NCBI GenBank assembly: GCA_964016885.1
Contig: OZ024743.1
Location: forward strand, 76,632,001 to 76,696,000
Source of the DNA: Eledone cirrhosa
Lineage: Eukaryota
Length of the DNA: 64,000 bases
Reading direction: 5' to 3'
The notes under the pieces are model-generated. The model was not told where the DNA came from and searched no databases. It saw nothing but the letters and a program-made list of their open reading frames with translations. The position numbers and the translations under genes are program-made. Position 1 is the stretch's first letter, and every line of letters starts with the position of its first letter. Positions 57,155-57,352 of the stretch are shown here, one piece after another.

Positions 57155-57352
57155 ATAGGAACCAGTAAGACCCCGACAGCTGAGCTCAAGCCGTTTCGAC
57201 GGCTAATTCTGAGTCCAGAATTAGCCGTCGAAACGGCTTGAGCTCAGCTGTCGGGGTCTTACTGGTTCCTATTACCCACTCTACTACCTCAAGTATTGAG
57301 TACTTTGGTGCGTTATGGTCCACCTGGTTCCTTACCACATTTCCTTCGTTAT
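57155..57352. mobile_element. perfect palindrome (~57-bp arms) centred on a hammerhead stem II loop, plus 3' tail
   Basis: GACGGCTAATTCTG-AGTC-CAGAATTAGCCGTC-GAAACGGC-TTGAGCTCA-GCTGT-C-GGGGTC; tail homologous to 30200-30280 and 58335-58410. Confidence 0.8.

Follow-up and report, generated by a model that had tools for sequence, protein, structure and literature searches.

Insertions of Penelope-like elements (PLEs) are described as carrying an inverted, 5′-truncated pseudo-LTR and an optional tail (PMC8557442, PMC3846280; these and all other papers are cited here for the parts of their text that were covered). Self-priming on an antisense template at the junction palindromes was already proposed in PMC3846280, and both the origin of the inverted structures and the role of the hammerhead ribozymes are called unresolved in the covered part of PMC8557442. 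There is no in vivo evidence for cleavage by PLE hammerheads according to the covered part of PMC4209133. For a lizard element studied in vitro, the corresponding part of PMC11167929 reports no RNA-seq ends at the ribozyme cut and describes cleavage as dispensable. In partial tandems of D. virilis Penelope, transcription begins within the upstream repeat, from a promoter internal to the pseudo-LTR (PMC2377424, covered part). In LINE-1 and SVA insertions, an extra G is regarded as the trace of a copied cap (PMC4859970, PMC11702581, covered parts).

The locus described here lies at 57155-57272 of the window, which is the whole stretch of 64,000 nucleotides that was analysed. It forms a perfect hairpin with a 4-nt centre (57212-57215; fold with z = -24.9), as the initial annotation had recognized, and is embedded in a (TA)n tract. 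The right half of the hairpin is the 3′ half of a type I hammerhead, which is followed by 80 nt without a mirror copy and then by (TA)n. The locus is a stub inserted by a Penelope-like retrotransposon whose motifs are of the Hydra type, and it probably arose from two cDNAs.

The window hairpin and related copies

Positions in the element are numbered from window position 57212 (+1), which is located in loop II of the parent hammerhead, 18 nt before GAAA. The following features were assigned to the insertion and its target:

57098-57157, no strand, left (TA)n target flank
57155-57211, minus strand, inverted arm, a copy of element positions +5 to +61; its outer end (+61) abuts the (TA)n target
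57212-57219, plus strand, wall for both arms (+1 to +8) in loop II of the parent hammerhead, with an initiator-like TTAGT/TCAGT context; putative transcription start
57212-57272, plus strand, forward arm (+1 to +61), comprising the end of loop II, the 3′ strand of stem II, GAAA (57230-57233), stem III, the cleavage triplet (GUC, 57250-57252) and the 3′ strand of stem I
57252-57253, plus strand, bond predicted to be cut by the hammerhead (+41/+42), at which both arms of a separate class of copies elsewhere end exactly
57273-57352, plus strand, 80-nt "tail", forward arm only, with its 3′ end fixed at +141 (putative outer RT start site)
57351-57733, no strand, right (TA)n target flank

The inverted arm would have been synthesised as a cDNA from the inner RT start site, with priming by the opposite target strand, and the copy as a whole would represent the seamless form of a head-to-head join of two cDNAs. 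Base 57211 is either the last base of the inverted arm or an untemplated, cap-derived G.

A search of the window revealed relatives of the hairpin's family at 30066, 39484, 58335 and 59632. They are given here together with a stub of a different family (family C):

30066-30280, plus strand, subfamily-B stub; inverted arm to +1 (ends at 30126), 13-nt fold-back re-copy of +4 to +16 at 30127-30139, forward arm from +4 (30141), tail
39484-39893, plus strand, subfamily-D stub; about 220 nt of other sequence separating the arms, forward arm from +1 (about 39752) after an extra G
58335-58412, minus strand, very short stub of the window hairpin's family; inverted arm to about +42 (microhomology blurs the end), joined straight to the tail
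59632-59839, minus strand, subfamily-D copy; complete U3-A8 hammerhead at 59697-59792, +1 equivalent at 59742, short inverted arm at 59811-59839
60341-60531, minus strand, family-C stub; two arms and tail as in the window hairpin, junction inside loop II with a short insert, ends spread family-wide

The initial annotation had read 30066-30198 and 60401-60531 as inverted-arm insertions and had given the starts of the copies at 28118, 50125 and 43752, all of which is confirmed. Its reading of the hairpin as half a ribozyme, based on an intact relative at 59697-59792 (minus strand), also holds; the hammerhead there is complete. What it had taken for a natural stem II within 30066-30198 resolves into the end of the inverted arm (30126), the 13-nt re-copy and the start of the forward arm (30141). 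The exact pattern of the copy at 60401 matched that copy alone. In the copy at 43752 (family F), the inverted arm (43541-43751) reads through the whole hammerhead, stem II included.

Larger inverted-repeat insertions were observed at 17875-18443, 18863-19395, 30454-31278 and 48088-48745, with arms of 177-278 nt that are 93-99% complementary. At least the one at 18863-19395 is another hammerhead-bearing two-arm element, and unrelated sequence separates the arms at 48088-48745. At least two further AT-rich repeat families contain hammerhead core words with long loops (27783-27984, 40105-40147, 42538-42580, 42831-42872, 55004-55051, 56967-57009 and 63114-63153), and one of these repeats sits just left of the window hairpin. 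On the minus strand, a tandem repeat of about 317 nt (20910-20980 and 21227-21298) has a weak match to the Rfam family HH9 in each unit (22 bits, E 0.5-0.6) and shows a retrozyme-like arrangement. Elsewhere in the genome, stubs are nested in the (TA)n flank of older stubs, resulting in nested or tandem arrays (L003/L004, L012, L114, L196-L198). Furthermore, the public run X5, which stems from another organism, contains a 60-nt hairpin contig of the window hairpin's element (record 19) and the loop sequence of the parent. The element may thus be shared with a relative.

Genome searches and samples

The genome searched was a 3.0-Gb assembly. For the family of the window hairpin (family A), the first 100 by position of 5,237 exact matches to a 41-nt piece of the tail were used, unselected for upstream content. 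Subfamily B (the copy at 30066) is represented by the first 70 of 5,074 copies by position, and subfamily D (the copy at 59697) by the first 50 of 765, the figures for D being noisy, with an admixture of B-type copies. All three samples consist of the earliest copies along one contig. A and B together comprise 170 position-ordered copies with 297 arm ends (A: 100 forward and 78 inverted; B: 70 and 49), of which 127 copies have two arms. The query of the first genome search spanned the axis and thereby selected for the window junction, for which reason its loci were excluded from the frequencies. For family C, 60 of 62 matches were fetched; in family E, part of the locus L142 is masked.

The parent element and its ribozyme

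The sequence from which the stubs were copied can be read from those copies that continue beyond +1. Upstream sequence is retained in ten of the 100 family-A copies, and in all ten one and the same natural sequence, unlike the inverted copy, lies 5′ of 57212. A genome search with the stretch immediately 5′ of +1 yielded no candidates, an outcome that carries no weight. A variant form of this sequence is present in 9 of 70 subfamily-B copies, and in contigs from public runs (X3, X5) it appears as a loose end at 57212. The initial annotation had placed the axis of the palindrome in the natural loop of stem II, but the perfect 14-bp stem is absent from the template: the ten upstream-extending copies all differ there. 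The perfect "stem II" of the hairpin is a product of the inversion and forms its centre. The stem II of the parent is imperfect, with about 10 bp (-9.3 kcal/mol) and a loop of about 30 nt, compared with -22.8 kcal/mol for the perfect stem of the hairpin.

The parent is predicted to be a type I hammerhead with a U3-A8 variant of the core. It folds without constraints into a three-way hammerhead junction with an NUH cut site, the overall z of -0.47 being not significant for the fold alone. The U3-A8 core is kept in 13 of 15 distinct complete copies, and position 7 varies. The predicted fold of the copy at 59697 lacks the three-way junction. A scan with Rfam yielded no hammerhead match at the window's hammerhead copies; elsewhere in the window, it gave only microsatellite-driven miRNA matches and two weak hammerhead matches.

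One of the upstream-extending family-A copies is arranged in tandem, with a unit of 3,118 nt and a 719-aa ORF starting at +232. According to motifs read from the sequence, this single ORF (L129:1579-3738) combines a reverse transcriptase (YRDD) with a C-terminal GIY-YIG domain (VIY...YIG). A homology search revealed 2,054 homologues with a length of about 700 aa, and the best match carries PF01541 (GIY-YIG). A Pfam scan of two partial ORF pieces gave no match to a reverse transcriptase or endonuclease. Partial-tandem pseudo-LTRs, an inverted 5′ copy and an optional tail are all present, as in the architecture of endonuclease-bearing PLEs. Among the motifs of the Hydra clade, DKT, the CxCx5C linker as well as CxxC and CxH around E and N were found, with RWR replacing RWK, and the (TA)n target and the hammerhead are present too. 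The ORF motifs fit the Hydra clade as described in the covered part of PMC8557442.

Beside the full-length parent, two similar LINE-type RT fragments lie in inverted orientation (L128:3348-4472 on the plus and 5486-6610 on the minus strand). A classification of the stubs as non-LTR retrozymes, which consist of tandem units each with a complete hammerhead (10.64898/2026.07.22.740005, covered part), was rejected, since the stubs hold half a ribozyme.

Positions at which the arms end

The initial annotation had anticipated a peak of breakpoints at stem II. The ends in A and B are indeed far from uniform, but the peak is located at +1 to +8, with 167 of the 297 ends (A forward 53/100, A inverted 51/78, B forward 30/70, B inverted 33/49). 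Only 29 ends fall at -8 to -1 (p = 9e-25). Of the others, 24 are located in the 3′ arm of stem II (+9 to +19), 22 far upstream and three at -30 to -9, all three in subfamily B, which is leakier; none lies in the 5′ arm of stem II (-42 to -31). In family A, no end was found between -5 and -81, and 12 lie further upstream. In subfamily D, which has a different stem and loop, the mode of the forward arms is found at an equal distance from GAAA, at TTAGT (10/50; noisy).

The outer ends are fixed as well. In family A, 75 of 78 inverted arms end at +61 and 93 of 100 forward arms at +141, i.e., 80 nt apart. Contigs from public runs show loose TA ends at both boundaries of the tail, and a rough measure of their depth gives a step of about 25-fold at +1. 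None of the public runs listed for the element is given as RNA, with X4 being either RNA or DNA. A difference of at least 5 nt of 5′ sequence between the arms favours the inverted arm in 40 of the 127 two-armed copies and the forward arm in 28. Position +1 is reached by the inverted arm in 33 copies and by the forward arm in 19.

Since both arms stop at one base, the wall is taken as the end of the RNA template. Position +1 would then be a capped transcription start inside loop II, as several features of the DNA suggest. It is the A of TTAGT or TCAGT, which is kept across A, B and D, and lies 231 nt before the ORF start. Both words are initiator-like. Given the precedent of D. virilis Penelope (PMC2377424, covered part), a promoter would be expected inside the upstream repeat. 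In the 170 copies, an untemplated G adjoins +1 at 19 of 31 informative junction sides, compared with 16 of 46 at +2 to +8 (Fisher p = 0.035). C is the next commonest base at that place next to +1 (10/31). This G excess is modest; it is suggestive of a cap trace and not a proof. Around -29, family A has a TATA-like word that is degenerate in B and missing from D. Several starts or a boundary of another type are possible in view of the 29 ends at -8 to -1 and the leakier subfamily B.

Small clusters of ends were also seen at -7/-8 in D (L195, L191, L192) and at -4 in A (L076, L127, L042). The site at -4 matches TCATT, an initiator-like word as well. These clusters may represent alternative starts.

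The wall is not general, because families C, H and E show no single one, and a comparable peak of ends at stem II is likewise missing in all three. In family C (copy at 60401), 37 of 110 ends lie past the whole stem II and core and 42 in stem II or its loop, with 19 in the densest 8-nt window. An apparent initiator wall upstream of the core in this family, seen with n = 30, gave way to a broad spread once n reached 69. Family H (copy at 28118) has 9,406 exact-tail copies, and in 30 of them the ends are spread over hundreds of bases. In this family (window 28060-28230; L205-L231), the inverted arms are often 200-300 nt long, the forward arms are cut almost to the tail, and the core is degenerate. 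Family E (copy at 50125) has 4,207 exact-tail copies with spread 5′ ends, none of the 30 inspected having an inverted arm, and is probably mobilised differently. Its copies in the window (21809-21833, 28929-28953, 47320-47344 and 50125) have a short-stem hammerhead with a canonical core and end in (CA)n or (TA)n.

A probable second template end at the predicted ribozyme cut

In 3 of the 100 unselected family-A copies, both arms end at +42, the first base after GUC. A targeted search with one such junction gave 40 scored candidates, all of which matched at full length with at least 93%. In this query-biased search, in which 2 of the 30 fetched loci were already known, the forward arm ends exactly at +42 in 26, the inverted arm in 28 and both arms in 24 of the 30 loci. 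A control junction with both arms at +24, whose query was longer than that of the +42 search, retrieved itself and at most one similar copy (1-2 of about 28 distinct loci). The copies with both arms at +42 have varied untemplated inserts, nearly all of which begin with A. Such copies were seen in A only, with none among 70 copies of B and 50 of D.

Had the reverse transcriptase stalled at the base of stem III, the ends would lie at +41. In the simplest reading of these sequences, the ribozyme would cut in vivo, and the 3′ product, which retains both RT start sites, would be copied.

Formation and joining of the arms

Within the 78 two-armed family-A copies, 24 junctions show microhomology, 19 are blunt and 35 contain inserts. 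There are 68 different junctions, the commonest of which occurs four times, and the junction of the window is absent from the 78. Due to this diversity, the junctions must be made anew each time. Among 49 junction inserts of 3-60 nt, 15 begin or end with a copy of at least 4 nt of the neighbouring arm that starts 3-10 nt away (shuffled: mean 3.0, maximum 9), although one of the 15 (L036) is a parsing artefact. In all 17 seamless joins in which one arm ends at +1, the centre measures 3, 4 or 6 nt. From these templated inserts and short centres it follows that the 3′ end of a cDNA often folds back briefly and is extended, which leaves a short sense bridge. A short fold-back piece beside a separate full inverted arm was found in 8 of 30 loci of the axis-spanning search, and the 13-nt bridge at 30066 is an example from the window. 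The fold-back is not required, as zero-loop centres (+2/+2) occur in 3 of the 78 copies. DNA polymerase theta is an example of a host polymerase that might extend such fold-backs instead of the RT.

The arms of a copy share subfamily variants (mean distance 0.87; shuffled mean 1.80, minimum 1.33; n = 30). This is consistent with one RNA for both arms as well as with one arm being copied from the other.

The stub at 39484 (39530-39750) and the loci L187 and L320 contain pieces between their arms that look like coding or downstream sequence of the element itself, which suggests that template jumps took place while the arms were joined.

In the proposed mechanism, two reverse transcriptases would prime on opposite strands of the cut (TA)n target. 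Both would copy one RNA sequence from two start sites 80 nt apart (+61 and +141) and run off the 5′ end of the RNA, and the two cDNAs would then be joined head to head. This would happen by end-joining, because identical sequences cannot pair, and often after one 3′ end has folded back over a loop of 3-6 nt and has been extended by a few bases to give a bridge. An RNA from the upstream repeat, started at +1, would contain half a ribozyme, its first 141 nt would include both RT start sites, and stubs would result from priming at these sites. A read-through RNA would contain the whole ribozyme in its 3′ repeat; uncut, it would give long copies, and its self-cut 3′ piece would give the stubs with both arms at +42. 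Run-off of two cDNAs at two RNA 5′ ends, likely the transcription start in loop II and the self-cleavage product, with subsequent end-joining, is the best explanation and is somewhat more likely right than wrong.

In a wider reading, which we regard as evenly balanced between right and wrong, the inverted repeats of PLEs would result from programmed twin priming from two RT starts. The promoter would lie in loop II, so that fresh RNA with half a ribozyme could not cut itself and read-through RNA could. The genome would then hold a base-precise fossil record of both RNA ends. As far as the searches reach, this would include the first in vivo trace of cleavage by a PLE hammerhead, with the cut product being retrotransposed.

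Alternative explanations

The initial annotation had explained the hairpin by a reverse transcriptase that stalls at stem II of the hammerhead, after which the cDNA snaps back on the stem and primes the inverted arm. The axis does lie in the stem II region, namely in the loop, and family C provides some examples: in 1 of 41 junctions (L429) the natural stem serves as microhomology, in two more this role falls to a natural 10-nt palindrome of the 5′ arm of stem II, and the small cluster of 19 ends within 8 nt lies there. A stall, however, is contradicted by the absence of ends from the natural 5′ arm (0/297) and the mere 24 at +9 to +19. The template lacks the perfect stem, the 30-nt loop is not retained between the arms of any A or B copy, and stem II is read through freely in families C and H and at 43752, which makes this explanation very improbable for the family of the window hairpin. 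From the snap-back idea, short fold-back synthesis at cDNA ends stands (15 of 49 inserts); self-priming of the whole inverted arm is not supported, given the 40 of 127 copies in which this arm is the longer one. An inverted arm should not exceed the arm it is copied from, and fold-back of one cDNA would not give such copies, although some of the asymmetry could be due to deletion after insertion. A version that includes such deletions assumes one tail-primed cDNA that runs to the 5′ end of the RNA, folds back, copies the whole inverted arm and joins the target at TA microhomology, the centre being blurred later. Fold-back copies are real, the arms share variants, and the window copy looks exactly like such a product. 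This version is nevertheless improbable, as the inverted arm reaches +1 more often than the forward arm (33 vs. 19) and is more often the longer one, its outer end is fixed to the base (75/78), zero-loop centres exist (3/78), and 8 of 30 loci have a short fold-back piece in addition to a full inverted arm that is separate from it.

The synthesis of two cDNAs can also be kept with a different cause of the wall at +1, i.e., a processed RNA 5′ end, a protein or structural roadblock in loop II, or a pyrimidine-rich AG resembling a splice acceptor. The putative start site is deduced from DNA signatures, +1 falls within a weak hairpin inside loop II in the predicted fold of family A, the AG follows a pyrimidine run, and the hammerhead of D. 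virilis Penelope overlaps an intron end (PMC4209133, covered part). A splice acceptor is disfavoured, because the ends peak at +1/+2 and thus include the AG instead of starting after it, and because no constant upstream exon is seen among the copies. Subfamily D has a different loop yet an equal register, the extra G is in excess at +1, and family A lacks a gradient of ends just upstream; taken together, a wall of another kind is unlikely, but the strongest of the alternatives. Amplification of the palindrome from a master copy, as a MITE-like or retrozyme-like mobile unit in its own right, could be suspected from 22 of the 30 loci of the axis-spanning query that carry the window junction without an extra insert (two overlap at one site). 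These loci, however, were selected by the query, whereas 68 of 78 unselected junctions differ and do not include that of the window, and a stub has no complete ribozyme; such amplification is extremely improbable. Perfect hairpins are a known artefact of long reads, and none of the public contigs extends across the axis with 31 letters on each side. Contigs of 55-56 nt from the public runs X2 and X3 do cross the axis, below this bridging threshold and from a sample that may be the assembly's own, and variant joints around the axis are also present in public contigs. Given thousands of copies whose flanks are unrelated, whose ends are precise to the base, and which contain templated inserts as well as point mutations that arose independently in the arms, the probability of an assembly or chimera artefact is close to nil.

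Comparison with known systems

In the openly accessible main texts, as far as covered, nothing was found that connects the axis of the inversion with a start in loop II or with the ribozyme cut; the supplements of PMC11167929 and PMC8557442 could bear on this. The thousands of young stubs give exact predictions, namely a capped start at +1, a 5′-OH end at +42, RT starts at +61 and +141, and short fold-back bridging. By mapping both arms onto a natural full-length copy, the promoter and the cleavage position of any abundant family could be obtained with DNA as the only source.

With the endonuclease-bearing PLEs (PMC8557442, PMC3846280, covered parts), the stubs share the head-to-head inverted copy, the tail at one end, the junction palindrome and the microsatellite target. 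They differ in that the inner ends pile up at two fixed template positions instead of being random truncations, the junction palindrome is a product of the event and not a feature of the template, and the tail has 80 nt instead of the published 30-40. As in the Hydra clade (PMC8557442, covered part), there is a single short ORF with a C-terminal GIY-YIG and the motifs DKT, CxCx5C, CxxC and CxH, a hammerhead and a (TA)n target; here, RWR is found instead of RWK and the unit slightly exceeds 3 kb.

Poseidon of the green anole, studied in vitro (PMC11167929), also has two internal RT starts bounding the tail, cutting and extension of both strands, a predicted dimer and an AT-rich target. The parts of that paper covered contain no model of an inverted arm; here, genomic copies end exactly at the cut. 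The type I hammerheads of PLE pseudo-LTRs (PMC4209133, covered part) agree in location and in the covarying U3-A8 core, and pairs on opposite strands were noted there. The hammerhead described here has a full stem III and a loop II of about 30 nt that appears to hold the promoter. D. virilis Penelope (PMC2377424) likewise starts inside the upstream repeat; in the covered part of that paper, the start site is not linked to an axis or to a ribozyme loop.

In twin priming of LINE-1 (PMC4859970, PMC11702581, covered parts), both DNA ends prime reverse transcription as well, the cDNAs are end-joined with microhomology or small inserts, and an extra G occurs. The LINE-1 cDNAs copy adjacent parts of the RNA, whereas here one part would be copied from two fixed sites, which gives a mirror repeat. 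The stub architecture and the idea of self-priming at the junction are already published.
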